55,952 nt of DNA from a virus (lineage: Duplodnaviria; Caudoviricetes). A program made the translations under genes and the position numbers. Location of the stretch: IMG/VR virus record IMGVR_UViG_3300020404_000088, positions 1 to 55,952 of that record; one strand, 5' to 3'. Positions 1,090 through 48,483 of this stretch are shown here, piece by piece. The notes beneath the pieces were generated by a model. It was not told the origin of the DNA. It saw nothing but the letters and a program-made list of their open reading frames with translations, and did no database searches. The stretch's first letter is position 1. Each line of letters begins with the position of its first letter.

Positions 1090-1527
1090 TTATTTTAAAC
1101 TCGCAAAAACTTTAAATTGATTGTTCTCTTGTTTTTCCCAGTTAAATTCCATTTTCAATCCGCCATCTTTTTTATGAGAAACTCCATCACCGTCTTCAAT
1201 TTCTTTACCTTGTGACATAGGACCGTTTGAGTTCTCAGGTGTTTTGCCGTATCTTCCACCGAATTGAGTAACCTCAACAGTTGCGTTTCCCTTATCTGAC
1301 TCTATCTTAGGTTCAGTAAAGTTTAACCCCATAACATTTAACTTATTGTTAAGTTGTTTCATAGCAGCGTCTGGTTGCATATACTCTTGTTGAGCCATTG
1401 CACCAACAAAACCATTTAATCTTTGCATTACTCTTTCGTCATGTATGTTGAAAAGACCTAGATTGTCATCTTCAGCAGAGTTAAGAGCAACAGTATGGCT
1501 CTCATCAAATTGTTTAAAGCTTTTCAT
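1090..1527 (-). CDS. hypothetical protein, probable internal head protein
   Basis: Start re-assigned to MKSFKQFDES (ATG 1527, GGA upstream), resembling a T4 capsid-targeting sequence. Confidence 0.7.
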   Translation of the reverse strand: MKSFKQFDESHTVALNSAEDDNLGLFNIHDERVMQRLNGFVGAMAQQEYMQPDAAMKQLNNKLNVMGLNFTEPKIESDKGNATVEVTQFGGRYGKTPENSNGPMSQGKEIEDGDGVSHKKDGGLKMEFNWEKQENNQFKVFASLK

Positions 1528-2685: not shown

Positions 2686-3369
2686 TTACGCAGTTACAGT
2701 AATTGTACCAGCGTCAGTTCCAATAGAAGCAGCACTTGTAATCGTAGAAGCAGTGTTTGCCTCTTGGTTTAAGTGACCACCTTGAGCGCCTTCTAGTCTT
2801 ATGAACTCACCAATGTCTCCAGAGTTTGTTCCTTCTTCTAAAACAACGTGTTCAGTAGATTTCTCATTGATTGTACCACTATTTAAAGCGAGTGCGTTTG
2901 CACCTATTGAAAGTACATCATCTGCATTTGTAGCGGCATTAGCAGCTGCAATTGCAAGTTCGAATGTAAGTCTGTTTGTACCAGAACCACTAGCGTATAA
3001 TAGGTTGTGTGGACCACGACCTGAACCTGAACCAGCGTTACTGTTTGTGACAGCAAGATGTGGCGTACCACCATCTGTAGCAACTTCAACTTCCTCGTTG
3101 AAAGTAACTGTAGCACTTAAAGTACCACCATCAGACTTATCAAAACTATCTATATTCCAATCGATTGCTGTGATGTCTGCAAGATTCAGAGAAGTGCCCA
3201 AGTCACCAATTGCCACGATAACTTCTTCTTGTGTTCGATTAGCTCGACCACCAGTTCCAGTTACCTTTTTTACCCAACCTTTTTCGGTAGCGTAAACGTT
3301 TAATTTCTCAGCGGCTGTGAAGTGTTTTGGTTTATCTTCAACTGCGTCTGAATTTCCCCATAAAGGCAT
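2686..3369 (-). CDS. putative virion structural protein (Ig-like/beta-sandwich)
   Basis: 227 aa, VTFNEEV...YASGSGTNRLTF...LALNSGTI pattern; AGGAG RBS; GATAAATA variant at 3415-3422. Confidence 0.6.
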   Translation of the reverse strand: MPLWGNSDAVEDKPKHFTAAEKLNVYATEKGWVKKVTGTGGRANRTQEEVIVAIGDLGTSLNLADITAIDWNIDSFDKSDGGTLSATVTFNEEVEVATDGGTPHLAVTNSNAGSGSGRGPHNLLYASGSGTNRLTFELAIAAANAATNADDVLSIGANALALNSGTINEKSTEHVVLEEGTNSGDIGEFIRLEGAQGGHLNQEANTASTITSAASIGTDAGTITVTA

Positions 3370-3420: not shown

Positions 3421-3942
3421 TCAAAAACCTAATCTCTTAAGCTCTGAAATTGTTTTTGAAGCACTAGTATGATGTATACCAATACCCCCAGCTGCCTTAA
3501 ATTGATCTACGTTTCTTTTGAAATCATCAATCAATAATGCAGGCCTTCTCTTCCCACCACTTTTCATTGCAAACTTTTGCTTATCTCTACGTCTTACCAA
3601 GTTAATATTACTTGTAGATATATTAACATTTTTTCTTAACCAAGTTCTTTTACCTGGTATGCAGTTAGGGTCTTCAGTTGTATAAGCAGATAATATATGT
3701 GGTTTATATTTGTCAATATAATTCCATAGTTGTTGTCCTCCAGGCATCCAAGGCATATTTGACCAGAAATTACGATACTTCTTGATCACTTCCCAATGTT
3801 CATCTGACTTATCTTGTGTGAAGATAACTCCTGTCGCCTTCTTCGCCTGCACTATAAAGTCACAAAGCACACCATCCATATCACAATAGATACGAGGTAG
3901 ATCGCCTTTTGCTTCTCTATAAAACTCTTTATAATCTCTCAC
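3421..3942 (-). CDS. HAD-superfamily 5'(3')-nucleotidase-like protein
   Basis: Motif I YCDMDGVLCDF, ILSA, conserved K, LLIDD. Confidence 0.85.
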   Translation of the reverse strand: MRDYKEFYREAKGDLPRIYCDMDGVLCDFIVQAKKATGVIFTQDKSDEHWEVIKKYRNFWSNMPWMPGGQQLWNYIDKYKPHILSAYTTEDPNCIPGKRTWLRKNVNISTSNINLVRRRDKQKFAMKSGGKRRPALLIDDFKRNVDQFKAAGGIGIHHTSASKTISELKRLGF

Positions 3943-3956
3943 TAGAGATTTCCTCC

Positions 3957-4574
3957 CTAATGTAAATTACCTGTGTTAGTTCTCATACCGCCAGAGAAAT
4001 TACCAATGTCTTTGTCTGGATTAACTTCTATTTTAGTTTTACCACCAACTTTGATTTCATCTTTTTTCTTTGATTTTACAAGTTCTTTAGTATCAACTTT
4101 CTTATCTAATATTGCGTTTGCTATTCCTGTTCTTAATGGCACCTCTCCTGTTTCAGGATTAGCCTCAGGTTTAACAACTTTATTCTTTTCGTTTTCTAAC
4201 TTTTGTTTTACTAAAGCTAATTGACCTGTTAGATTTGTTATTGTTCTTTCTAAAGCATCTGTATCTTTTTTAGGTTCTGCTTTTTTAACTTCCGACTCTT
4301 CTTCTTTTGCTTCGTTTGTTATCTCTGGATTGTTAGTCACATAGTTAGCGACAGAATTTAACTTATCCTCTGCACTAGTTATCTTAGATTGTAACCATGC
4401 CTCCATATTATAGTCATCACCTTTACCAGAAAGAAAGTCCATTATCTTACCTACTCTATCTTGTATAGTTTTTAACTGACCGACTGCCATAGAAACTTCG
4501 TAGTCTTCTTTAACTACTTTAGGTTCTCTAACTTCTTTTAGTGAGTCAGCAAATGATTTAGTATATTTTGTCAT
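3957..4574 (-). CDS. probable internal head protein
   Basis: 205 aa, Lys/Glu-rich, EVSMAVGQL...EAWLQSKIT module bounded by xxE sites. Confidence 0.6.
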   Translation of the reverse strand: MTKYTKSFADSLKEVREPKVVKEDYEVSMAVGQLKTIQDRVGKIMDFLSGKGDDYNMEAWLQSKITSAEDKLNSVANYVTNNPEITNEAKEEESEVKKAEPKKDTDALERTITNLTGQLALVKQKLENEKNKVVKPEANPETGEVPLRTGIANAILDKKVDTKELVKSKKKDEIKVGGKTKIEVNPDKDIGNFSGGMRTNTGNLH

Positions 4575-4582
4575 TATGATCC

Positions 4583-7144
4583 TTACTTAACTAGACCTCT
4601 TGATTTTAAAACTGCTTCCTCTAGTGAACCAGGTTTTGTATCTAGGTATCTTTTTGCTTTTTCTCTTGACTCACCATACATAGCTTTCATATTAACCATT
4701 TTCTTTTCTTTTGAAATTTTCATCATAGCATTCATCATCTCAGGTGTGTCTTTAACTTTTGCCATATCAGCGCCACCGTTATCTTTGACAGATGCTTTTA
4801 CATCTGATTTCATGTACATAGCATTCATGTCTTTCATAGCGTTCATAGGTTTAGCTTTCATAGCATTCATTTGCATTGCGTTAAGAGCTTTAACTTTTGG
4901 TTCTGAGTCTGTTTCTTTAGTCTTTTCTTCTTTCTTCATGTCTTTCATGGCATTCATCTTCTTCATAGCATTCATAGAACCGTATTCTTTTTTCATAGAC
5001 TTCATTTCTTTTTTATCTTTTCTTAACATTGCGAAGTCTTTAGCATCGAGATCACCATCTTTATCTTTATCTAATTTTTTTTGACCACCTACTAAATCTT
5101 CTTTCACTTCTTTTTTATCTTTCTTCATGTCATGCATTTCTTTTTTATCTTTTTTCATGTCGTGCATTTCATCTTTAGAGTCGTCTTTCTTACCTTGTTT
5201 AGCAAGAATAGCTTTCTGCAATGCAGGTGGTAATTTCTTTTGTCCTGCAGTTAATCCCTCTGTTAAACTATCAACATAACTGAAAAATTCTTTTTGATCT
5301 TCATCTTTTAATTCTCCTAGGGAACTGATTTTGTAATGCTCCATAGCAGAGGTTAGTCTTTGTTTGTATGATTCATTCATTTTAAGTTCTCCTTTTTTGA
5401 TGAATTGCTTGTCTTCGCCTAGACCTAATTTCTTCTTGACCATATTAGTTGCTGTCGCATAACGAACAGCGTCACCATCTTTTCCATATCTTTTAATAAA
5501 GTCTTTCTTAGGTAGATCATCAGCTTTCTTATGTACTTGTTTAATTTGTGATTTAGATAAATCTGCTTCTTCTAAATCTTTCTCATCTGAAATATCTTTT
5601 GCTAATTGTTTAGCTTGTTTGTCGTGTGATTTAACAGATTTTTGAAGTTGTTTGATGATAGGTTTGATAGTCTTCTCATCATCTTTATTTAAATCTTCTT
5701 TAACAACTTTAGCACCTGAGCCGTATTGATCAACATATCTTTGTGCCTCATGTGGAGTGTTGTATCTTCCTAAAGTCATTTTGCTACCATCTTTTTTAGT
5801 GATCTGTACAGTATATGTTTCTGTCACTGGTATTTTTCTTTGTATCATTTTTGATAATGCAAGACCTGATATGAAAGGTATCTTTTTCTTTCTCACATCA
5901 TTTAAGGCATGATCTGGAAGTCTTCCTATCATGTCACTTAATTTCTTAGCGTTAGAAACTGATATAGTTTTATCTTTCATAACACCATATGCTTTTGCAA
6001 GTTTATTAAGTTGATCTGCACTAAAATAATTTTGATTTTCAATTATATTAGTTAGAGTATCTACTAATTCATTTTCCTCATCTTCTGGAAAAACAACTTG
6101 CCAATCTTCAAGTATGTCAGATATGTATTTAATCTTTGCATTTTTAATATCCATTTGAGTAAATTGATCAAGACTTTTAACAAAGTTTTTTATATTTGGT
6201 GTTAAATCTGAAGCCTTTTTAGTTGACCAAGTCTTTTTCATTCTAGCAAGTTGATCTTTTGAAAATGAACCTTTGTACATATCAGCAATACTTTCACTCA
6301 CCTCGTAGATGTAATCTTTACCAAATAGATCATCAACTATGTCTTCTTGGACACAATTAGGAACCATTTTGTCACCTTTTTTCTTTAGGCCAACTTGTTT
6401 ATATCCTACCCAACAAGCTTCTTCTAGGTCAGTTTCTTTATCTTCCTTTATCTCTACTTCGTCATTTAAAGCTAAAGGTCTATCTAAACCTCTAAAGTTA
6501 ATGTGATTATTAAAATTTAAAGTGTGTGTAGTAATTGATATGTCTTTTAATCCATCTCTCTTTAATTGAGCAGCTTTATCATCAGCAGCTTTTTGTGTTT
6601 TGTATGCAGCCGCAAATCTTTTCTTGTTTGCAGGATCAAAAAATCTAACAACAAAACCTTTTTGTATTTTTTCTTGAATTGTATTGTCTTTTTGTTCCTC
6701 AAGTGAAGGACATTGACATTCTTCACCCTCACATTTAGGGCAAGTTTCTTCTAATTTAAGAGTGCCTTTATTTTTTTGTAAGATTTTCAAATCTCTCATA
6801 GTCATGCCTGGTGCTCTTGTAGCTATAACTCTTGCTAAATCCATAGCTCTAATTTTACCAGCCTCAGTATTTCTTTCACTAGCAGGCATATCTTTTAGAA
6901 TCATTTTATATTGTTTCTCTAATTCAAACTTTCTCATATCAGGACTAATTTCATTTAAGTCTTCTTCATATTTAGGACTCACTTTTTTAGTGCCATCTGC
7001 TCTAGGTATTAAACCTTTTGCTTTTAAATGTGCCTTGTCTGTAAAACCAGCGTTGCCAGACTTAAATCTTTTCATAGCGTCAGCCGTATCAGGAGCTTTC
7101 TCTCTAACTTGTTTTAACGCTTCTGTCATGTCTATGTGCTTCAT
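4583..7144 (-). CDS. large modular Lys/Glu/Met-rich protein, probable processed internal head polyprotein
   Basis: 853 aa of short modules separated by LEE/LNE/VKE/IKE; CWVGY...VPNCV module; DKDKDGD motif; MNAM repeats. Confidence 0.65.
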   Translation of the reverse strand: MKHIDMTEALKQVREKAPDTADAMKRFKSGNAGFTDKAHLKAKGLIPRADGTKKVSPKYEEDLNEISPDMRKFELEKQYKMILKDMPASERNTEAGKIRAMDLARVIATRAPGMTMRDLKILQKNKGTLKLEETCPKCEGEECQCPSLEEQKDNTIQEKIQKGFVVRFFDPANKKRFAAAYKTQKAADDKAAQLKRDGLKDISITTHTLNFNNHINFRGLDRPLALNDEVEIKEDKETDLEEACWVGYKQVGLKKKGDKMVPNCVQEDIVDDLFGKDYIYEVSESIADMYKGSFSKDQLARMKKTWSTKKASDLTPNIKNFVKSLDQFTQMDIKNAKIKYISDILEDWQVVFPEDEENELVDTLTNIIENQNYFSADQLNKLAKAYGVMKDKTISVSNAKKLSDMIGRLPDHALNDVRKKKIPFISGLALSKMIQRKIPVTETYTVQITKKDGSKMTLGRYNTPHEAQRYVDQYGSGAKVVKEDLNKDDEKTIKPIIKQLQKSVKSHDKQAKQLAKDISDEKDLEEADLSKSQIKQVHKKADDLPKKDFIKRYGKDGDAVRYATATNMVKKKLGLGEDKQFIKKGELKMNESYKQRLTSAMEHYKISSLGELKDEDQKEFFSYVDSLTEGLTAGQKKLPPALQKAILAKQGKKDDSKDEMHDMKKDKKEMHDMKKDKKEVKEDLVGGQKKLDKDKDGDLDAKDFAMLRKDKKEMKSMKKEYGSMNAMKKMNAMKDMKKEEKTKETDSEPKVKALNAMQMNAMKAKPMNAMKDMNAMYMKSDVKASVKDNGGADMAKVKDTPEMMNAMMKISKEKKMVNMKAMYGESREKAKRYLDTKPGSLEEAVLKSRGLVK
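5108..5170 (-). repeat. 30-bp coding tandem repeat (EMHDMKKDKK x2)
   Basis: Two near-identical 30-nt units visible in DNA and protein. Confidence 0.85.
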
Positions 7145-10014
7145 TATAGTTCCTTTTTCATACGTTCAACGGCCTTTTCTAGTTCTTCCTTGTACCGTTC
7201 TTTGTATCGTTTCTTATATTTATCTATTGTTTCTTCTTCATTTCTAAATTTTTCTATATCTGCCATCTTGATAGTTTCACTATATTTTCTGAAGTTTTGT
7301 ATAGGTTGACCTGGGGTCATACTCATTGTATGCCTAGCAGAATGATCTGTGCCTAATAAGTAATATTCATCTATTTTCATCTCTTTTTCAAGTTTATCTA
7401 TCAGACTTTCTTTCTGCATTTCTTTTGTCTTTTTCTTCATCTGTTCAATATATCTTCTATATACTGCCGCTTCTGAAGTTTTACCCATCTCTTTTGCTCG
7501 TTGTTCCATTGCAACAGCAGCTTGAATCTTGTGTGCATGAGTCTTACCAGAATTCTTAATCTTATTCACACTTGCTCTCGCAGTTTCAACATCTTTGAAA
7601 CCTAGACCTTTGATAGTGCCTTTTGGATTTTCATCTGTATATAGATCACTATGTTTATCTGAACCTGCAGGTTGACCTTTCTTTCTAGGTATTCTAGGTG
7701 CTTCGTCTAAAGGTTGTAGATCATATAACCATGCCTTCTTAATCAGACCGTCATTCTCATATGATACATAATTAGAACCTCGCCTAACAACCATACCTTG
7801 TGTGCCGTCTGTATGTTCTACCATATCACCCACGTTGAATATTTTTTCTTGATGATATTCTTCTCTTAAATCATTGTTCACAAAGTCAGTAAAATTACCT
7901 ACATAACTTTCTCTAATGTCCATACCTTTCTTGACAGCGGCAAATAATGCCTTTGTATCACTATCAGAAAGATTAACAACACCTCTTTTAAAATTTCTAT
8001 AATCATTATTCTTTGCCATCTCTCTCATTTTAGAGGCAGACATTCCTGTTACACCTTCAGCATCAGGATCTCTCTCGCCAGATGAAGCAACTTTGATTGA
8101 TTTGTAATTGTATTCTTTACCATTATACTTGTCAGCGAGTGATTGAAACTCTCTTATCCTATCACTACCAGCTACCATGATTATCTCACCATACATCTTG
8201 TCGTAGAATTTTAATATCTCCATAAATGTTCTTTGTGTGCCACCTGCTGCCATAATCTTATTTCTAGGAAACATTTTTCTCATAAACTTAACTTTGGTGT
8301 TTACATCTAATGGATTCTTTCTTTTGTCTTGTGAGGCGCTAGCATAGACAACGTGATTAGCGCTGTTCTTTCTAGCTTGATTTATCACTTCTCTCATAAG
8401 TTTATCATGCCCACTAGTAGGAGGGTTGAACCTACCAAAGGCAAATATTAGTTTCTTGCTATTATCTAACGCCTCTTTAACAGCCCTCGTTTTACTTTGG
8501 GCTAATTCTTTTCTGTAAGGTCCATGACCTTTATCTTTCCAGTTTTTATCTTGAATATTTTTAGCACCGACAGATTCTACATAACCACCTTTAAGTGAAT
8601 CTATCTCATCATCATCAACTTCACCATCTGCTAATATATTTTTTAGATATTTAAAGAAAGTTATATAGTGATATTTTTCTAACATCTTATATATTACATT
8701 TTTAGGTAATCTATTTTTGATACCATATGCTCTAATCTCGTCTGGTGTCATGTCTTTATCAAACGCCGCTCTTCTTTCAGCGTCAACTGTATCACCGATG
8801 TCAACAATATCTTGTATATCTTTTTCTATTTCTTCTAACTTATTCTTAATTCTTTTTTCTAAATCTTTAATATCGCCTGATTTTAATTCTTTTAATTCAT
8901 CATAGTCGATTATATCTCTTTTTAATTCGCCTTTAATTACGTCTATCTCTTGTACTTTTTTATCAAAATCTTTAATATATAAATTAACATCAAAGGTAAA
9001 ATCTTCTGGTCTTTTTACAAACTTATTATTCGTTATATCAAATACTGCGTCTGCTTTATTATTTTGATCATCATAAGTTTTTTCATCTGTAATTAAATAA
9101 TAATTAACAGGATGTTTTGTACCTGGTATTAACTTGCCTTGTATGTTGTCTGGATTTTTAGAAGATAAAAATTGTTTTGATAATCTTAATCTCTCGTCTT
9201 CTTGTTTTTCCTCTGGCACATCAAATAAAATATTAATATCTAAATCAGCATCATTTCTATATCTCTTTGTAAGTATAGAGCCAATCAAAGTTATCTTTAA
9301 AACAGGATATTCTTTTTCAAATTCTTCAACCTGTTTATCAATCATAGATAAAACACTAGACTTAATCTTTGGATTATCTGTATCTTCATCATCAAAAACA
9401 CCAGGTGCATAAGTTCTTCTAGGTATATCGATAATGGATTCTACAAATGTTTTAAATGTTTTCATTTCTTTTACATAGTTCCCTTTATTCATAAGGGCAT
9501 ACATTTTTTCACCTAATAAATTACCAGCATCATAATCTGAAACATAATGAAATCCTGCCAATACTCTTCCATAACCACACTCATTACCTGCCTCGATTAA
9601 GTTAGCCTCGTGTTCAGGAAATTTACCTGCAACATATCTCGCAACTATTCTTGATTGAACCGCATGGCCACTAGGGTATGATGGTGTCTTGTTTGTTTTA
9701 CTTGGTGATGTATCAATCGTCTTATCTATTTCGATAGGTCTCTTTCTATCAAACTTATCTTTAAAATAATTAATAGTATCTGTTGCTCCATAAATTATGT
9801 CTTTAAATTCATCTTTGTGAAACATCATTTTATTATCGTCACAATATTTTTTAATAGCATAGAAAGGAACTTCATCATGGTCTGCGATTGATTTCTCTTG
9901 CTCTGCCGTTCTATTAGATACAATTTTCTTCACCTCTTTTGCTTCACCTATATCATCTTTAGGTGGTGCAGGTATTGTTATATCTTTATACAACTTATCT
10001 TTAAAAAATTTCAT
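7144..10014 (-). CDS. multidomain enzyme: PAP2 phosphatase + Pol-beta-type nucleotidyltransferase + cytidylyltransferase-like (HIGH class) + C-terminal modules
   Basis: RKRP/PSYPSGH/RVLAGFHYVSD (PAP2); IGS...DADLD (NTase); FGRFNPPTSGH/VAGSDR/MSASKMR (HIGH-like). Confidence 0.8.
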   Translation of the reverse strand: MKFFKDKLYKDITIPAPPKDDIGEAKEVKKIVSNRTAEQEKSIADHDEVPFYAIKKYCDDNKMMFHKDEFKDIIYGATDTINYFKDKFDRKRPIEIDKTIDTSPSKTNKTPSYPSGHAVQSRIVARYVAGKFPEHEANLIEAGNECGYGRVLAGFHYVSDYDAGNLLGEKMYALMNKGNYVKEMKTFKTFVESIIDIPRRTYAPGVFDDEDTDNPKIKSSVLSMIDKQVEEFEKEYPVLKITLIGSILTKRYRNDADLDINILFDVPEEKQEDERLRLSKQFLSSKNPDNIQGKLIPGTKHPVNYYLITDEKTYDDQNNKADAVFDITNNKFVKRPEDFTFDVNLYIKDFDKKVQEIDVIKGELKRDIIDYDELKELKSGDIKDLEKRIKNKLEEIEKDIQDIVDIGDTVDAERRAAFDKDMTPDEIRAYGIKNRLPKNVIYKMLEKYHYITFFKYLKNILADGEVDDDEIDSLKGGYVESVGAKNIQDKNWKDKGHGPYRKELAQSKTRAVKEALDNSKKLIFAFGRFNPPTSGHDKLMREVINQARKNSANHVVYASASQDKRKNPLDVNTKVKFMRKMFPRNKIMAAGGTQRTFMEILKFYDKMYGEIIMVAGSDRIREFQSLADKYNGKEYNYKSIKVASSGERDPDAEGVTGMSASKMREMAKNNDYRNFKRGVVNLSDSDTKALFAAVKKGMDIRESYVGNFTDFVNNDLREEYHQEKIFNVGDMVEHTDGTQGMVVRRGSNYVSYENDGLIKKAWLYDLQPLDEAPRIPRKKGQPAGSDKHSDLYTDENPKGTIKGLGFKDVETARASVNKIKNSGKTHAHKIQAAVAMEQRAKEMGKTSEAAVYRRYIEQMKKKTKEMQKESLIDKLEKEMKIDEYYLLGTDHSARHTMSMTPGQPIQNFRKYSETIKMADIEKFRNEEETIDKYKKRYKERYKEELEKAVERMKKEL

Positions 10015-10268
10015 TATTCTCCACCTCCATTACCATTTGATCCATTACCATTAGTGCCATTACCATTGCCGTTAGTACCATTATCGTTTGTATTGTTATC
10101 ACTTGATTGTTGATCATTTTGTCCGTTGCCATTTCTACCACCAAAGTAAGGATAATATCTAGTCACGCCAGTAGGCACACAGACTTGTAACTTATTATCA
10201 AATCTATATCCTGGTGGACACTTTTTCTGTTTTTGTGCCTGCAACATAAACTGTTTAAATTTATACAT
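10014..10268 (-). CDS. small protein with Cys pair and Asn/Gly-rich tail
   Basis: CPPGYRFDNKLQVC followed by NG repeats; abuts both neighbours. Confidence 0.7.
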   Translation of the reverse strand: MYKFKQFMLQAQKQKKCPPGYRFDNKLQVCVPTGVTRYYPYFGGRNGNGQNDQQSSDNNTNDNGTNGNGNGTNGNGSNGNGGGE

Positions 10269-10269
10269 C

Positions 10270-11502
10270 TTATCCTTTTACCCAATCTTTTGCTACATTA
10301 AAGTTTGCCTGACTAAAGACTAATCTATCAACTAGTTTGACAGCGTTACCTTTATTTATTGCAACATAACCCTCAGGATTTGTTACCTTGTAGCCATTTT
10401 TAGTTCTCATAAAAGAACCTATACTTTGTATCTTATTTAATTTACTTAACAACATACTCTTTGCTGTCTGTAACGTGATGTAAGAAGCAATAGTAAAATA
10501 AAGACCTTGTCTGTTAGGTCTTAATATCTTCATACCTGCTTCTAGTATCTCTTTGTATTTTTGTTTTGCTTTATCAGTTTTCTTACTGTCTATCTCTTTC
10601 TTTATTTTCTCTATGAAATATACCTCAAAGTTATTTGTTAATGCTTTTGCATTACCAATCTTTGATCCTGCTCTAATATATGTATTGAAAAATGTTTTAA
10701 GTTGAACACCTAGAGATAAAGGACCTTTATCTTTTTTAATTTTATCTATGAAAGCACCTGCCTTATAGATAGAACCCTCTGCCATATTTAATATAGCGTC
10801 AAATCTTTTTTCTTCTCCTGAATTAAAACCAGGATCTTCTGCCTGTTTGTATCTTGCGTCATCAAAGAATACGTTTTTGTTTTGCCTTAATCCACCAACA
10901 CTTGCACCAAAACTTGCTTTCATAGTTTTGATCGTTTTACCTGAATATGATGTGTGGAAAATTATACCGATCTTTGCCTTGTTTATTCTATCATACATAG
11001 AACTGCCAAAGAATCCACTCTTGACAACTGGCACAGCATAAGTTATTGTGTTAGGTGTAAATACAATCGACTTCTCTCCATTAACATTAGCCATCTTCTT
11101 ATCATCACTTGTAAACAATAAGTCACCTTGTATTACGCCTTTGATACCTAACGAAGGCAAATACTTTAATGCAACAGCAAGTTTATCCGCTAATGCGCCG
11201 CCGTGGTTTCTGGATATATCCGACACGGTGTAGTTTATTTTAGGCGTTGCATTAAATATTGATTTCGTTCCTACGAAAAATCTACCATTCTCTGGATTGA
11301 TACCACAGAATATAGCAGGTGCACCGTCCCATTTCACTGAAACAGTTGAACCTCCCTTGCCTCCCTGAAGCATTTTTTTGATAGACTTTAAAAACTCAAT
11401 CGAAGTTTTTGCACCGCTTGTCCCATTATTAATAATTTCGTCTTCTAAATGTTCAAGGTGTGTATTTCGGTCTTCATTTAAGACTTTTTTAAACCCTTGC
11501 AT
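10270..11502 (-). CDS. conserved T4-like protein with ATP-dependent ligase-type motif (putative RNA-ligase-like nucleotidyltransferase)
   Basis: NTHLEHLED N-terminus; KWDG (motif I-like), QGDLLF (III-like), EGYV (IV-like), VKLV (V-like). Confidence 0.65.
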   Translation of the reverse strand: MQGFKKVLNEDRNTHLEHLEDEIINNGTSGAKTSIEFLKSIKKMLQGGKGGSTVSVKWDGAPAIFCGINPENGRFFVGTKSIFNATPKINYTVSDISRNHGGALADKLAVALKYLPSLGIKGVIQGDLLFTSDDKKMANVNGEKSIVFTPNTITYAVPVVKSGFFGSSMYDRINKAKIGIIFHTSYSGKTIKTMKASFGASVGGLRQNKNVFFDDARYKQAEDPGFNSGEEKRFDAILNMAEGSIYKAGAFIDKIKKDKGPLSLGVQLKTFFNTYIRAGSKIGNAKALTNNFEVYFIEKIKKEIDSKKTDKAKQKYKEILEAGMKILRPNRQGLYFTIASYITLQTAKSMLLSKLNKIQSIGSFMRTKNGYKVTNPEGYVAINKGNAVKLVDRLVFSQANFNVAKDWVKG

Positions 11503-11533
11503 TATGCACTTTCTCCATTTAATATTATATGAT

Positions 11534-11569
11534 TATTTATATTATAACACACTTTAGACAGGCTGTCAA
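11534..11569 (-). promoter_or_regulatory. overlapping sigma70-type and late promoters
   Basis: TTGACA(11564-69)-N17-TATAAT(11541-46) with TG extension; TATAAATA at 11534-41. Confidence 0.8.
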
Positions 11570-11575
11570 GTGATA

Positions 11576-12835
11576 TTATTTGGCAATTACAAATTTACCA
11601 GATTTTGGTGCTCTAGAGGTTACATAAGTAAATATACTTCTAACAAATTCAGTTTTTACTTCTTGTTTTTCTTTTGCTAGCCAACCTGATATGACAGGCA
11701 TAACTCTATTAATAATAGTTGTAGCACTTAATTCACCTCTTCTTTTATCGTAAGCTTCTTTACCATACTTATTTCTAAATTCTGCTTTTGTTTTCTCGTG
11801 TATCTTATTTTGTGCTTTAAATAGATCATTTCCTATCTTATATTGTTTTAAAAATTCTTCACCAACTTTTGAATTATGTTGACCCACTAACCTAGAAAAT
11901 GCGTCAAATGATGTAAGAGAACCACCTCTTGCTTGAGCACCTTTATATGTAAAGTCAACTTTCCATTGACCTGCTGAGGGTTCATGTCTTATCTGTATCT
12001 TACCTTTATCACCACCTTTATCGTCAACTATTCCTAATAACATATCTCTTTGTGGATCTTTTTCTGTGTACCAGACTTTACCTGCTTTCATTTCAACTTT
12101 ATATATATCTTTATATTTTACATTTTTTAATAATTCTGTTTTTGATTTTTCATCAAAGTTTACTGGTTGAAGTTGAACCTCTTTAATTTGTTTTTTTAAA
12201 GATAAAGGAAATAAATCACCTGATTTCATATTTTCAGTAATTAGTATGTTTAATCTATCTATATTATATGAGCCTTGATTTGATTGTGCAAATGATAACT
12301 CTTTATTAACATTTCTTTTTGCAACTTCACTAGCAAAATACATATCAGCAGGACTCCATTTATTAATATCACCAAACGATGGTTGTCCTAGAGTAGTCCA
12401 GTATTTTGTATTCTTATTTGCTATCTTAAATAACTTCTCTATATTACCCATGATAGGACCATCACCTCTTTTGTATAGTAAGTTATTAATTCCTGGTGTC
12501 TGTATTCTATTAAATTTTGTATATCCTAACTTTGACATTAAAGTTGTAATATCTTGAATTAATTTCAAAGCAATTAAAACAGAGGATCGATACCAACCAT
12601 TTTTATCACTAGGTCTTTTTAAAAAATCTTCTATACCTATTAATGAAGCACCTGGAGTATCAATAGCTTTATATGCTTGATCTATTAATTTTCTATTATC
12701 AGATTCAAATTCATTATAGTTAGTATATTTTGATAAATCTAAAACTGATTTTGCCTTTGATACACCTGCAATGTCGGCTATAGCACAAAATAGTGCTTGT
12801 GCTGATTCTCCGAATTTTGTATCTATTGCTGACAT
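11576..12835 (-). CDS. hypothetical protein, possible PD-(D/E)xK-type nuclease
   Basis: Start moved to ATG 12835 to avoid the tRNA; KWSPADMY...PLSLKK motif. Confidence 0.55.
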   Translation of the reverse strand: MSAIDTKFGESAQALFCAIADIAGVSKAKSVLDLSKYTNYNEFESDNRKLIDQAYKAIDTPGASLIGIEDFLKRPSDKNGWYRSSVLIALKLIQDITTLMSKLGYTKFNRIQTPGINNLLYKRGDGPIMGNIEKLFKIANKNTKYWTTLGQPSFGDINKWSPADMYFASEVAKRNVNKELSFAQSNQGSYNIDRLNILITENMKSGDLFPLSLKKQIKEVQLQPVNFDEKSKTELLKNVKYKDIYKVEMKAGKVWYTEKDPQRDMLLGIVDDKGGDKGKIQIRHEPSAGQWKVDFTYKGAQARGGSLTSFDAFSRLVGQHNSKVGEEFLKQYKIGNDLFKAQNKIHEKTKAEFRNKYGKEAYDKRRGELSATTIINRVMPVISGWLAKEKQEVKTEFVRSIFTYVTSRAPKSGKFVIAK

Positions 12836-35075: not shown

Positions 35076-35668
35076 GCTATGAGAGTCCTGAGGGCGTTAT
35101 TTGCCTCACAATCGACTACTAAATGGATTCTGTCTTCTTTTGACGTATTTCGGACAGCGTGTGGTTTACTGACATCTGTATAGTAAAAATGACCAGTTTT
35201 AAGATTATGTTCTTGTCCTTTTTTATCTTTGGCATTTTCATATAAAGTAAATATGACATCTTTATTTGTGCGAATTGGAATGTGTACTCTAATTATTTTA
35301 CCACTATCAATATCTTTATCTATTTTATCAGAGTGCTTGCCAATGATTTTACCTTTTGATAGTTTCATAAATCTAACTCTTTCATATCTACAAGGAAGTC
35401 TGTCTAGTATTTCAAGTATAGGTTTCATTTCATCAAGATTTATTAGACTAGTGTATTGTAGTTTTGTATCTATATTAACTGAACTTTTTAAAACACCAGG
35501 TTTTAATATATCTAAAGGGTGGCTACCATAACCATGAAAAGATAAAGCAGTCCAATCGTCACCCTTTGTATATTTTGTTTTAACTTTCTTAAATTCAAAA
35601 TCATCTAAAAACGTTGATATTTTTTCTAAGGAGTTTTTATATGGTTCTATATTTAATTCTTTTATCAT
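35072..35668 (-). CDS. aspartyl/asparaginyl beta-hydroxylase-like 2OG oxygenase
   Basis: RVRFMKL..G..I..HSD, RVHIPIRTN, PHAVRN...RIHLVVD. Confidence 0.85.
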   Translation of the reverse strand: MIKELNIEPYKNSLEKISTFLDDFEFKKVKTKYTKGDDWTALSFHGYGSHPLDILKPGVLKSSVNIDTKLQYTSLINLDEMKPILEILDRLPCRYERVRFMKLSKGKIIGKHSDKIDKDIDSGKIIRVHIPIRTNKDVIFTLYENAKDKKGQEHNLKTGHFYYTDVSKPHAVRNTSKEDRIHLVVDCEANNALRTLIA

Positions 35669-35991
35669 TTGCCTCCCATCTCATTCTTAGGTTGTTTTTC
35701 CCATCTAGGTGGATTATCACCACCCACGTCATAATCGTGATATGATCCCTTTTTATATGTATCATAATCAGGTCTAGGGGCATGGCCTGTTTTACCCTCT
35801 TTAATATCCTCTCTAGTAAAGGCAGGTTTTTTACTCTTGTCTAAACTGCCCACGTTAGTAGGATAGCCTGGTTCTAATTTTTGAATTTTTCCCCCCTTCG
35901 CTAAAAACTTTTTCATTTGCTCATCTCTTTCAGCTTGGGTTGCTTTAGGTTTGTATTCTTCTAGGCCAGAGTTATCTTTGAAACTGCTCAT
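35665..35991 (-). CDS. small protein with SutA-like RNA polymerase-binding motif
   Basis: ERDEQMKKFLAKGGKIQKLEP resembles the Pseudomonas SutA core (FL.RGGKVQEIEP). Confidence 0.6.
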   Translation of the reverse strand: MSSFKDNSGLEEYKPKATQAERDEQMKKFLAKGGKIQKLEPGYPTNVGSLDKSKKPAFTREDIKEGKTGHAPRPDYDTYKKGSYHDYDVGGDNPPRWEKQPKNEMGGK

Positions 35992-45332: not shown

Positions 45333-46652
45333 TTACATAATGTTAGAAACTTTAACACGTCTGTAATATACGTTTTGGTCACCAGCTGCAGGAGACGTTA
45401 AGTCAATTGCACCAGTACCGTTAGTAGTTGCGAAAGGATTAGCAACCATACCATATCTAGTTTTGAAACCGATTTTTGGTTGGAAACTATCTTGACCAAC
45501 GGCTCTTACCATTTGTAGTGGTACGTAAGGACAATAGAATAGTCCAGAGTCGTAAGGTGAAGTACCTTTGTAACCTACAACGTAGAATTGTGAAGCAGCA
45601 ATATTTGCACTATATGGATCAATGTAAACTTTAAATTTACCATTTAATACACCAGCGAAAGTATTTCCTGTGTCATCAACGTTTAAGTTAGTAGAAAGAG
45701 CAGGAGAGTAATCTAATACACCTGACATCTGAAGTGCAGAAGCAACATCAGCTGAACAGATAATCATATTACCTTTTCCTCTTCTTGTTAATTGACCAAC
45801 AGCGTTAGCATCTCTCTCTAATTGGAATAATAGTCCTTTGAATTTCTCAACTGACCATCTACCGTTAGAGTCTGTGTCAAGATCGAAAATACCAGCAGTT
45901 GTAGTATTAACTTGAGCACCTGCTTTTGCAGTTGTGTAGATTGTTCTAACAACTTCTCTATTGATCTCCGCAAGGATTTCTGAAGATAGGATGTTAGCAA
46001 GTTCCGTTTCAGCATCTAAACCGTGGATTGCTTTTAAGTCTTGAGCAAGTTCCATAGTGTATTCTGCTTTAAGAGCTCTTGATTTCGCAGTTACAGTAAC
46101 TTTATCGATTGAGAAAGCCATTTCTGCGAACTCGTCTGTTCCGTCACCTAGTGTTTCTGCTTGTGCAACAGTCATACCGTCACCAGTTGTGTAAGTACCA
46201 GCAGGTGAATCGTTAAGAACACTTGGATTAGATCCAGAGTGAGCACTAGCTGAACCAGTGTTACCAGCAGCATCTCTAGCTGAGAAATCTGAATCTGCTT
46301 CGTTAAATAGTGCTTCAGCACCAGCTTGCGAACCAAATCTTGACTTCATAGCGAAGATTAAACCAGTTGGACCAGTCATAGGTTGAACACCACAAATGTC
46401 ATAGGCAATAAGGTTAGGCATTGCTCTTCTAACAAGTGATATTAAAACAGGATCCCAGTTGTCAACAGATGAACCAGTTGCGTTAGCTGGTGCAGCTTCT
46501 GACATAAATGATCTGTCTTCTCTAACTGCTTTCTCTTGGTTTTCCAAGATAACAGTTGTTACAGCTCTTTTGTATGCGTCACCGATTTTTGGTAAATCAG
46601 GATGCTCCAATACTGGCTGCCATTTGTCTTGTAAGTTTTCAGTAAGATACAT
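45333..46652 (-). CDS. gp23: major capsid protein
   Basis: LISLVRRAMPNLIAYDICGVQPMTGPTGLIFAM, KSRALKAEYTMELAQDLKAIHGLDAE, FYCPYVPL. Confidence 0.99.
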   Translation of the reverse strand: MYLTENLQDKWQPVLEHPDLPKIGDAYKRAVTTVILENQEKAVREDRSFMSEAAPANATGSSVDNWDPVLISLVRRAMPNLIAYDICGVQPMTGPTGLIFAMKSRFGSQAGAEALFNEADSDFSARDAAGNTGSASAHSGSNPSVLNDSPAGTYTTGDGMTVAQAETLGDGTDEFAEMAFSIDKVTVTAKSRALKAEYTMELAQDLKAIHGLDAETELANILSSEILAEINREVVRTIYTTAKAGAQVNTTTAGIFDLDTDSNGRWSVEKFKGLLFQLERDANAVGQLTRRGKGNMIICSADVASALQMSGVLDYSPALSTNLNVDDTGNTFAGVLNGKFKVYIDPYSANIAASQFYVVGYKGTSPYDSGLFYCPYVPLQMVRAVGQDSFQPKIGFKTRYGMVANPFATTNGTGAIDLTSPAAGDQNVYYRRVKVSNIM

Positions 46653-47844: not shown

Positions 47845-48483
47845 TTATTTAAGTTTAGATAAAAAGTCGTTGAAAATAGAGGCTTTCGTTTCTGCCAATT
47901 GAGCTCGTTTCGTCTTCTCTATTTGTTCTTTGTATTCTTCAACAGATTTACTTTTCAGTATACCGTTGTCCCATACCCATTCTTTGCCTTCCATGATACC
48001 TTCTACGAAAGCGTCAGGCGCTGAAGGATCTGCAACTATATCAGCCGCAGTAGCTAGATAGAAATCTTTACCGACAGTATGTCCTTGTATTGATCCCATA
48101 CCTCTTGATGATACACCTAGTTGTGCGCCCTCGTCAATTAAATTTTTGACGATCTTGCCGTATGGCGTATCCATTATCTTAGCCTCACCTATGAAGTTTT
48201 TACCTTCTGGTTTTAGACTAGTAATCATGTGTGAAACTCTCTCTAGGTTAACTGTTGGTCCGTCAGGATGTCCTAGTTCACCGAAAGCACGTTTCTTGTT
48301 TATAAATTGTTCGTTGTATCTATTAACTTCTTTAGCAAGAGTTTGTACTGGATAGACACGACCGTTACGATTCTTGATATCCGCTTGCATGAAGACACCT
48401 CTTATCTTATATTGTTTTTCACCAGAGGCATTTGCTTCTGTCAATACTTCGATATCTTCTATTGTTTCTGTTATTAGTTTCAT
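47845..48483 (-). CDS. gp21: prohead protease
   Basis: NRNGRVYP, GELGHP, GVSSRGMGS, DIVADPSAPDAFV. Confidence 0.97.
   Translation of the reverse strand: MKLITETIEDIEVLTEANASGEKQYKIRGVFMQADIKNRNGRVYPVQTLAKEVNRYNEQFINKKRAFGELGHPDGPTVNLERVSHMITSLKPEGKNFIGEAKIMDTPYGKIVKNLIDEGAQLGVSSRGMGSIQGHTVGKDFYLATAADIVADPSAPDAFVEGIMEGKEWVWDNGILKSKSVEEYKEQIEKTKRAQLAETKASIFNDFLSKLK

Follow-up and report, generated by a model that had tools for sequence, protein, structure and literature searches.

A modular protein of a marine T4-like phage as a candidate capsid-targeted precursor of internal head peptides

Why would a T4-like phage encode a long, strongly basic chain of short modules whose boundaries resemble the sites of its own head protease? 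The question is raised by an 853-codon open reading frame (ORF) in a 55,952-nucleotide stretch of viral DNA (IMG/VR record IMGVR_UViG_3300020404_000088; Duplodnaviria, Caudoviricetes), referred to below as the window. A first-pass annotation, made from the letters alone, had read this ORF as a beads-on-a-string polyprotein cut at gp21-type sites into small peptides within the head. Our analysis leads us to lean towards a related reading, that the ORF encodes a capsid-targeted, protease-processed polyprotein of internal head peptides, a marine counterpart of T4 IPI, IPII and IPIII. We regard capsid targeting and protease processing as well-founded predictions from several kinds of sequence comparison, with one experimental anchor in relatives.

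The ORF is present at 4583–7144 as annotated, and its strand is the minus strand (ATG at 7144, stop at 4583–4585); a plus-strand reading was rejected because stops occur throughout. Its start overlaps the stop of an upstream 956-codon gene at 7144, and a 205-codon gene begins 8 bases after its end. The product is rich in Lys (17.5%), Asp, Glu and Met, and with a pI of 9.27 and a net charge of +32 it is basic, as are the mature internal head proteins of T4-type phages. The window is a single contig with all genes on the minus strand and a G+C content of 29–39% in 2-kb windows, mostly 30–34%. Judged by its PHROG matches (terminase, tail sheath, tail tube, portal, head maturation protease, scaffold and major capsid protein, and also UvsW-type helicase, gp46/47, clamp loader, DNA polymerase, UvsX and gp41), it is a T4-like myophage. 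Gene order and best protein matches indicate Pelagibacter phage HTVC008M as a close relative. Pelagimyophages have a hypervariable region between their replication and structural modules, according to passages of PMC7029224; the passages of that paper that were searched do not mention prohead or internal proteins.

Module junctions and the head protease of the phage

A search of 5.8 billion proteins returned 683 homologs of the 853-amino-acid (853-aa) protein at E≤0.001 among 8000 scored candidates, of which 120 were listed; the homolog counts below refer to the 119 listed proteins other than a query-identical one. That identical protein lies on a 15.8-kb database contig that may derive from the same sample. 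Most listed homologs cover query residues ~236–853, with many invariant positions that extend into the low-complexity-looking C-terminal part, and the order of the core modules is collinear across all 120. Residues 1–235 were found in only 5 of the 119.

The modules quoted in the first-pass annotation could be located: CWVGYKQVGLKKKGDKMVPNCV at residues 244–265 (nucleotides 6350–6415), ADLSKSQ...YATATN at 527–567, GLTAGQKKLPPALQKAIL at 630–647 and DLVGGQKKLDKDKDGDLDAKDFAMLR at 683–708. So could all of its Glu-ending junctions, namely LEE (131, 148, 240, 524 and 841), LNE (63), IQE (156), VKE (481 and 680) and LTE (627). The protein contains 20 copies of [LIV]xE, compared with 10.3 ± 2.9 in 2000 shuffles (fraction reaching 20, 0.001), and 14 of [LI]xE, compared with 7.5 ± 2.5 (0.018). 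Conservation was counted on the ungapped sequences of the listed homologs, with the motif directly before the module head. Strict [LIVM]xE precedes ADLSKSQ in 111/113 (DLEE 65, QIVE 20, ELKE 18 and others), G..QKKLPP in 88/88 (DMKE, GLDE, SLEE and others) and the C-terminal AV.. in 93/94; it also stands before an optional insert (TYTVQI) in 52/52 and after it, before DLNKDD, in 38/38. At these junctions the middle residue drifts while Glu and the following Ala or Gly stay fixed.

Matches to phrog_207, phrog_237 and phrog_138 point to a gp21-type protease, a gp22 scaffold and a gp23 capsid protein in the window. The protease, which we propose as the processing enzyme, is identical to T4 gp21 at 67 of 212 residues and has the GELxHP and GVSSRGxGS stretches in common with it. 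In the T4 record, [LIV]xE followed by Ala, Gly or Ser is found near the start of gp22, gp67, gp68, gp24, gp23 and ipI–III; those of gp22, gp67, gp68 and gp24 we take, in line with the literature (PMC9026906, PMC5694885) and general background, to be cleavage sites. The probable maturation site of the window's capsid protein, FMSE52/A53 (FMSE/AA), aligns with FLTE65/A66 (FLTE/AE) of T4 gp23, and the T4 capsid propeptide is 65 residues long (PMC5694885).

An AlphaFold2 model built from 69 sequences had a mean pLDDT of 55.9, with 441 of 853 residues under 50, and confident blocks at 66–125, 241–520, 589–650 and 841–853. It comprises a helical block (66–125), a two-Cys beta-hairpin (248–266), helices (296–435), a strand-strand-helix-strand element (444–482), a long helix (487–520), further helices (591–650) and a short C-terminal helix. 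Regions 14–65, 125–240, 521–588 and 653–834 were modelled at pLDDT <50, although 527–577 and 683–710 are nearly invariant. A second model, of residues 243–526 alone, reached pLDDT 69.2. With four separate confident blocks and over half of the residues at low confidence, a single conserved domain was rejected. The annotation's picture of micro-modules on a string holds in part, since the block at 241–520 amounts to a larger folded region of ~280 residues. The junction sites fall at the edges of the confident blocks.

Searches for known folds and families returned little. Pfam gave nothing for the whole protein at E≤0.01 and subthreshold noise at E≤10 (Apo-CII, Forkhead_N, IL15). The suggested EF-hand-like module is reduced to a loop: DKDKDGDLDAKD fits the DxDxDGxxDxxD pattern, no Pfam EF-hand family matched at E≤10, and the region containing the loop (653–834) is modelled under pLDDT 50. 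In PHROGs only the two-Cys (CW) module matched, over 30–46 residues within 222–268. A PDB sequence profile search had no match at E≤1. Compared with ~48,000 PDB representatives, the full model had a best Z of 5.8 and the 243–526 sub-model a best Z of 6.0 (Foldseek best E 0.2), both in the range common for unrelated chains. BFVD gave one match at E≤0.001, a 'DUF5824 domain' protein of an uncultured virus with a TM of 0.08, and ESM Atlas gave scores up to 0.81 for residues 60–135 and no usable lead. Neither megablast of 4000–12000 nor tblastn of residues 527–650 and 683–853 (E≤0.01) matched an isolated phage, so that no cultured phage appears to carry these modules except for a weak, divergent relative in HTVC008M. 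A literature search for the motif strings found no match.

Leaders, module shuffling and relatives found in virions

The family begins in a characteristic way. The pattern M(T/K)?K(S/T)(F/Y/M)K(D/E)(I/L/V/M) opens 111 of the 119 listed homologs, and in 110 of these 111 the CW-module Cys lies 14–22 residues from the start. The leader junction carries strict [LIVM]xE in 87 of the 111; the residues preceding the CW module in the listed homologs are GIEE/A (28), DLEE/A (27), LEE/KA (25), VQVE/A (22) and a few others. In the T4 record, ipI starts MKTFKEF...ITE/A, with 19 residues to the Glu, and ipII and ipIII start MKTYQEFIAE/A. Family starts such as MKTFKD(I) and MKSYKE(I) agree with ipI at 5 or 6 of the first six residues. 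MKTYQEFIAE is a capsid-targeting sequence that the protease removes once, as a passage of PMC8442874 states. According to passages of PMC9026906, such propeptides have 10–19 residues, targeting depends on residues 4 and 7 and processing on 8 and 10, and Asp at position 10 stops cutting and leaves targeting intact; that paper, in the same passages, and PMC3012670 both state that diverse T-even proteins have only this leader in common. By sequence, then, the leaders of the homologs match the capsid-targeting leaders of T4 internal proteins.

Leaders of this kind are not confined to one family. In 70 loci, MK[TS][FY][KQ][DEQ] occurs within the first 30 residues of 56 of 1743 ORFs, all on the strand of the 853-aa ORF. 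They belong to ~8 unrelated-looking protein types (judged by eye, not clustered), including the 145-aa family (window 1090–1527), a 115-aa family, the cytidylyltransferase enzyme, a 101-aa family, a P-loop kinase (MKSFKDYIFE/A) and a 65-aa basic-peptide gene. A [LIVM]xE with its Glu at residue 8–20 is found in 41/56 of these ORFs and in 344/1162 other same-strand ORFs.

The window's own start, MKHIDMTEALKQVRE, follows the leader pattern of 10–19 residues with an aromatic residue at 4 and a hydrophobic one at 7 only loosely, because an upstream gene has been fused on; 111/119 listed homologs follow it. Ends typical of a leader, with (L/I)-x-Glu before a small residue, are seen at MTE/A and VRE/K and at a retained LEE/A at 240–243.

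This fusion can be followed in related sequences. Locus L018 has a 118-aa gene (MKYADMTE/ALKQVRE/STCPKCEGEG...) followed by an 848-aa gene that begins with the leader. The fused homologs P0004, P0005 and P0007 still contain MKTFKDVDK as an internal leader; in the query, P0003 and P0006 this leader is gone and KETDLEE/ACW remains. Compared with L018, the query carries the basic peptide as an insertion directly after VRE/, and compared with P0003–P0007 it has an extra 71-residue helical module, ending in LEE, between KYEE and TCPK. These two insertions suggest that modules enter at junctions and bring the junction along. On this comparison the window protein is a lineage-specific fusion in which an upstream gene and two inserted modules replaced the leader and the LEE/A junction was kept; an internalised leader appears to be dispensable, the cutting site being retained. 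An assembly error is unlikely, since five related fused forms exist in the database.

Module shuffling between related phages, which the annotation had proposed, was observed directly. Modules of the 853-aa protein and of its 205-aa neighbour reappear in other orders and combinations in related contigs; 60+ such contigs carry modules that are either reordered or encoded singly behind a leader of their own. Residues 16–60 form a gene of ~65–70 aa in 11 loci, composed of an MK(T/R)FK leader, an acidic spacer (..DFEED..), a hydrophobic-x-E and the 46-residue basic peptide; elsewhere the peptide is C-terminal in longer proteins, including HTVC008M AGE60462. Residues 134–242 are a separate upstream gene in L018 and lie within other proteins in L013, L031, L034 and L036, while the 527–577 module occurs in other contexts in L004, L005 and L046. 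The GLTAGQKKLPPALQKAIL module is also present in a 166-aa protein of L007 and in HTVC008M AGE60467, and YLxxKPGS(L/I)EE, the tail of our protein, opens a separate downstream gene (MSYLKHKPGSIEE..) in L007, L008, L009 and L005. The divergent members in HTVC008M are AGE60462, AGE60466, AGE60467 and AGE60473.

The junction motif accompanies the modules into these contexts, where hydrophobic-x-Glu and then Ala or Gly stand ahead of nearly all of them. Counting distinct sequence contexts, strict [LIVM]xE precedes the module head in 9/9 for GRM, 5/5 for GTG, 13/17 for ADL(S/T)KSQ (Glu 16/17), 10/13 for the basic peptide (Glu 13/13) and 13/24 for CWxGY (Glu 20/24, with six more having Leu one place further back). 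In 128 mosaic proteins [LIVM]xE[AGS] occurs 337 times against 173 ± 12 after shuffling, and in 527 other proteins of the same loci 485 times against 423 ± 20; Ala after Glu is enriched 1.93x in the former and 1.09x in the latter. A copy of the motif is found no more than 3 residues away from 27.8% of BLAST alignment starts (random 13.7%) and from 33.0% of ends (random 14.2%). The mosaic counts include related sequences, so only their ratios are trustworthy.

The experimental anchor comes from cyanophages. Only residues ~239–335 match cyanophage T4-GC119 proteins (tblastn E 2e-6 to 5e-7, 35.6–61.8% identity), PSSM2_123 of P-SSM2 among them, and PSSM2_194 of P-SSM2, annotated as T4-GC 190, matches the cytidylyltransferase part of our upstream neighbour (E 2e-53). 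In P-SSM7 and P-SSM4 the T4-GC119 gene lies a few genes downstream of the cytidylyltransferase gene, as the 853-aa ORF does; the P-SSM7 member starts MKTYSQFIEE/G and the Syn1 member MKSFKQL..INE/S. Sullivan et al., 2010 (PMC3037559) report, in the portions consulted, 41 proteins in purified S-SM1 virions, including a 'putative citidylyltransferase (T4-GC190)'; their ORF table puts a proteomic flag on T4-GC190 and T4-GC119, and in their Table S8 both are marked Y for S-SM1, T4-GC190 at 25 counts and T4-GC119, 'Structural protein', at 13. Leaders, junction motifs, the phage's own protease with its capsid site, and this virion mass spectrometry in relatives thus support gp21-type sites and a location in the head, as the annotation had it; the window copy itself has no canonical leader.

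Neighbouring genes of the window

The ORF belongs to a tightly packed block, from 11502 to 3421, that encodes a DUF6267 protein, an 84-aa protein, the 956-aa enzyme, the 853-aa protein, the 205-aa protein and an NT5C-like nucleotidase (Table 1). The start pattern ^M..[FY][KQT][KEDQ] is present in six of seven genes, counting the block and the gene at 1090–1527, and in two of 57 others (Fisher 2.5e-6, for a grouping chosen after looking).

Table 1. Positions of the 853-aa ORF, its modules (residue numbers refer to its product) and other features of the window.
Feature	Positions	Strand	Basis or remark
853-aa ORF, proposed precursor of internal head peptides	4583..7144	-	ORF scan, charge, homolog search
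Putative leader MKHIDMTE/ALKQVRE/, residues 1-15, two hydrophobic-x-Glu sites, non-canonical	7100..7144	-	same leader heads 118-aa gene in L018
Basic peptide module KAPDTADAMKR...KYEE, residues 16-62	6959..7099	-	stand-alone gene in 11 loci
Helical module, residues 63-133, ends in LEE	6746..6958	-	pLDDT ~90; this copy only, absent from P0003-P0007
Cys knuckle TCPKCEGEECQC + GFVVRFFDP module, residues 134-242, ends KETDLEE/A	6419..6745	-	
Two-Cys beta-hairpin (CW) module ACWVGYK...PNCV, residues 243-266	6347..6418	-	phrog_9737, phrog_727, cyanophage T4-GC119
Conserved helical region, residues 267-442, ends VTE/T	5819..6346	-	alignment and models
Optional strand-strand-helix-strand module, residues 443-483, between VTE/ and VKE/	5696..5818	-	in ~45% of listed homologs
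Long helix DLNKDDEK..., residues 484-526, ends LEE/A	5567..5695	-	model, junction counts
Near-invariant basic module ADLSKSQ...YATATNMVKKKLG, residues 527-577	5414..5566	-	pI 9.8, predicted disordered
Helical module, residues 578-629, ends L-x-E/G	5258..5413	-	motif strict 88/88
GLTAGQKKLPPALQKAIL module and K/D/M low-complexity spacer, residues 630-682	5099..5257	-	
DLVGGQKKLDKDKDGDLDAKDF, near-invariant DxDxDGxxDxxD loop, residues 683-710	5015..5098	-	alignment
Met/Lys-rich repeats (MNAMK) and conserved tail YLDTKPGSLEE/, residues 711-843	4616..5014	-	
Upstream neighbour, 956 aa, PAP2 + Pol-beta nucleotidyltransferase + cytidylyltransferase	7144..10014	-	starts MKFFKD
Downstream neighbour, 205 aa, mosaic relative	3957..4574	-	starts MTKYTKSFAD..VRE/; modules interleave with those of the 853-aa protein in L007, L008, L005
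NT5C-like 5'-deoxyribonucleotidase	3421..3942	-	GTG start
84-aa protein, CPPGY..C..VP Cys motif, Asn/Gly-rich tail (NGNGNG...)	10014..10268	-	MYKFKQF start; conserved in L011, L012
DUF6267 protein	10270..11502	-	Pfam E 2e-123; contains VKWDGAP
TATAAATA, T4 late-promoter-like motif	11534..11541	-	39 nt upstream of first gene of block 11502 to 3421
145-aa protein	1090..1527	-	starts MKSFKQFDE; Met start probable rather than upstream TTG
108-aa ORF in replication/recombination module, leader-like start, LEE site	35665..35991	-	starts MSSFKDNSGLEE/Y
Major capsid protein, probable maturation site FMSE52/A53	45333..46652	-	phrog_138; alignment to T4 gp23
gp21-type prohead protease, proposed processing enzyme	47845..48483	-	phrog_207 E 8e-80

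Several neighbours have starts worth recording. Relatives of the 956-aa enzyme, 764–814 aa long, start MKTFKESIID or MKTFKQLRE/S. The DUF6267 protein starts MQGFKKVLNE, with the T4 leader pattern (aromatic 4, hydrophobic 7 and 8, Glu 10), directly before a conserved NTHLEHLED, where HTVC008M has a different nine-residue start, MYNDLLVED; the protein had no PDB sequence match, and its VKWDGAP resembles the KxDG motif of ATP-dependent ligases and capping enzymes. The nucleotidase has a 13-residue extension, MRDYKEFYRE/AKG, before its conserved LPRIYCDMDG; the extension agrees with T4 MKTYQEFIAE/A at 6 of 11 positions and is absent in the L008 and L009 relatives. The 145-aa family occurs, always with a leader-like start, in ~30 related loci and in HTVC008M (AGE60473). 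P-loop kinase-like proteins lie beside the cytidylyltransferase gene in L008 (6066–6629), L046 (7136) and L001 (8141), with short leaders that end in the junction motif (MKSFKDYIFE/A; ..MLTE/G; MIPFILKE/G). Coliphage RB43 ORF241c has a similar start, as given in the supplement of PMC3037559.

Downstream, the genes at 2002–2553 and 2686–3369 (minus strand) resemble virion-type proteins, and the block therefore borders a probable structural block. One of the two has a start common to many loci, and the second is homologous, at 54% identity, to the HTVC008M 'S-layer domain protein'.

The promoter-like TATAAATA occurs twelve times on the coding strand (54484, 50295, 47798, 45270, 42582, 28383, 28174, 27591, 17181, 12848, 11541 and 2676), with ~10 per strand expected from base composition by our own estimate. 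Ten of the twelve are intergenic, 19–317 nt upstream of gene starts that include those of the sheath, scaffold, UvsX and DUF6267 genes; it also precedes recombination genes. We take it as a weak indication of late expression.

A wider claim would be that the block from 11502 to 3421 is a leader-tagged cargo set, loaded into the capsid and injected with the DNA; the proposed set would comprise the six block genes and the 145-aa gene outside the block, seven in all. We regard this as a doubtful extension. It is weakened by the cyanophage DUF6267-like cluster T4-GC71 and by T4-GC422, which carry no proteomic flag in the ORF table of PMC3037559.

Competing explanations and meaning for marine phages

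The scheme that we favour would run as follows. The protein would be made late, together with its neighbours, and its N-terminal leader would dock it onto the scaffolding core of the prohead. The phage's gp21-type protease would then cut after Glu at the conserved hydrophobic-x-Glu/Ala or Gly junctions, removing the leader and separating the modules. Basic modules would stay with the packaged DNA and enter the host, and acidic spacers would leave the head. Over evolution, modules would pass back and forth between multi-module ORFs and single-module genes, each of the latter headed by a leader. What we infer is that the protein is packaged and cut at its junctions and that the pieces are retained, injected and active in the host; for their roles, DNA charge neutralisation or early action in the host are guesses by analogy with the T4 internal proteins.

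Known systems offer parallels of different depth. T4 IPI, IPII and IPIII and the T-even IP-like proteins come from T4-like phages with a gp21-type protease and are basic, as is the family described here with its leader MK(T/S)(F/Y)K(D/E)I...LEE/A; they too are a variable set of unrelated proteins with a common leader (PMC3012670 and passages of PMC9026906). The T4 proteins are single, small (95–193 aa) and cut once, whereas ours links ~10 modules through conserved internal junctions into one 853-aa chain, has no sequence similarity to their mature parts, and has had its leader swapped for a fused upstream gene. In the giant phages phiKZ, 201phi2-1 and SPN3US, large head-internal proteins are cut after Glu by a gp21-related protease, and head and ejection proteins have several sites per protein and long propeptides (passages of PMC5694885 and PMC9026906). 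Their motif is (S/A/G)-x-E or A-x-E, and that of the window protein, where cleavage is predicted from sequence, is (L/I/V/M)-x-E; there is no sequence relation, the phage is of ordinary T4-like size, and its modules also occur as stand-alone genes. PHROGs and BFVD gave no match to phiKZ-type head proteins, and a relation is compatible with the absence of a listed match. The T4-GC119 proteins (P-SSM2 PSSM2_123, S-SM1 ORF 115, P-SSM7 ORF 194) have the CWxGYxxxGxKKKGxKxVPNCV module in common with ours and are likewise basic and mosaic, with T4-like leaders on the P-SSM7 and Syn1 members and, in the tables of PMC3037559, detection in S-SM1 virions; the remainder is unrelated, and in many cyanophages they lie between gp15 and gp16 or in a mobile cassette, unlike the 853-aa ORF. 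A looser parallel lies in retroviral Gag and the adenovirus core-protein precursors, chains targeted to the assembling particle and cut by its protease into partly DNA-binding pieces. That likeness is in logic only, as viruses, proteases and sequences are unrelated.

A number of observations weigh against the processed-polyprotein reading. Residues 243–520 are predicted to be folded (pLDDT ~75–85), and internal sites there may be inaccessible. Before DLVGG the strict motif is present in only 29/112, with Glu always present, and the query motifs at 282, 344, 367 and 680 are kept in fewer than half of the listed homologs. Motif enrichments are only about twofold, among related sequences, which makes the z-scores look stronger than they are. 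Of the 111 leader junctions, 22 read VQVE/A, hydrophobic at P2 and P4 and not at P3, and two read IQD/A. HTVC008M and P-SSM2 each have just a single instance of the strict leader pattern, and the window copy is without an MKTFK-type leader, its own start MKHIDMTE/ALKQVRE/ being loosely leader-like. The gene lies outside the head-gene block and adjoins enzymes of nucleotide metabolism. T4-GC119 homology is confined to one module of 30–96 residues, and in the tables of PMC3037559 T4-GC190 and T4-GC119 were detected in S-SM1 only: T4-GC190 went undetected in both S-PM2 and Syn9, while S-PM2 has no T4-GC119 and Syn9 gave no detection of it. For the window protein and its full-length homologs, presence in the virion and cleavage are inferred, not observed.

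These points leave room for other explanations. The protein could be packaged and trimmed at its ends only, losing the leader and perhaps a 10-residue C-terminal tail, to give a mature multi-domain chain of ~600–830 residues in which the internal hydrophobic-x-Glu motifs are relics of acquisition or redundant, unused sites. T4 internal proteins are cut once beside the leader and Alt at both ends (passages of PMC8442874 and PMC9026906, respectively), and the single confident stretch at 243–520 and the collinear core order of the 120 listed homologs fit such a chain. Internal junctions that keep Glu and Ala/Gly around a variable middle residue in 88–111 listed homologs would be hard to explain if unused, however, and the same modules occur as separate genes with their own leaders, with junction motifs at the edges of predicted structured blocks; we consider trimming at the ends alone unlikely. 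Alternatively, the chain might be an accessory scaffold or core protein, targeted to the prohead, chopped like gp22, gp67 and gp68, and expelled before DNA packaging. The basic charge of the protein and of most predicted fragments resembles that of the retained T4 internal proteins, unlike the strongly acidic tail of T4 gp67; the related T4-GC119 protein was found in mature S-SM1 virions; and a variable, mosaic family is not what would be expected of a core assembly factor. We give this possibility the smallest chance, even though in T4 the scaffold is broken down at numerous [LIV]xE sites and its proteins exit the head (passages of PMC8442874), the motifs occur in T4 gp22, gp67 and gp68, and cyanomyophages are without gp67 and gp68 according to a review (PMC2984593), so that analogs could exist.

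The protein might also never enter the virion. It could be an intracellular modular adaptor or regulator acting with the adjacent ligase-like, phosphatase, nucleotidyltransferase and nucleotidase enzymes, MKTFK being a recombination-spread or translation-favoured 5' end and hydrophobic-x-Glu-Ala a helix-capping linker. Such a role suits a context of nucleotide and nucleic-acid enzymes rather than head genes, the unflagged T4-GC71 and T4-GC422, and the lack of any fold or family match pointing to function. Yet the leader varies at the protein level (T/S, F/Y, K/Q, D/E/Q) and is not a fixed DNA cassette, and in several families it copies the T4 pattern down to the hydrophobic residue at 8 and Glu at 10. 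The junction motif corresponds to the protease specificity that this phage's own capsid protein indicates, and two related families were detected in virions. We find a purely intracellular role rather improbable, if not quite as improbable as an expelled scaffold, and retain the capsid-targeted, processed polyprotein as our preferred reading.

The classic example of proteins that enter the host together with phage DNA is the set of T4 internal proteins, and the T4 targeting leader has been used for loading foreign proteins into T4 capsids. One T4 internal protein blocks a host restriction enzyme (PMC3012670). In our literature search, whose coverage was incomplete, neither capsid-targeting leaders nor internal head proteins were described for marine T4-like phages. 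If our reading is correct, the T4 logic of leader and protease would extend to some of the most abundant viruses known, the T4-like phages that infect cyanobacteria and SAR11-type bacteria of the ocean. These phages would go beyond T4 in chaining cargo modules in one precursor and swapping them between genes, and conserved 'hypothetical' genes of marine viromes could be assigned a testable role, for which cleavage sites and fragment masses can be predicted exactly. For the window protein the predicted fragments are of about 25.7, 22.9, 4.6, 5.0, 5.7, 6.2 and 24.4 kDa. The reading would likewise account for the presence of a cytidylyltransferase in a cyanophage virion proteome. Should the cargo-set extension hold as well, the T4 leader would be an ancient, portable address label, and acquiring it could turn any gene, or any chain of modules linked by protease sites, into an injected factor that acts early.

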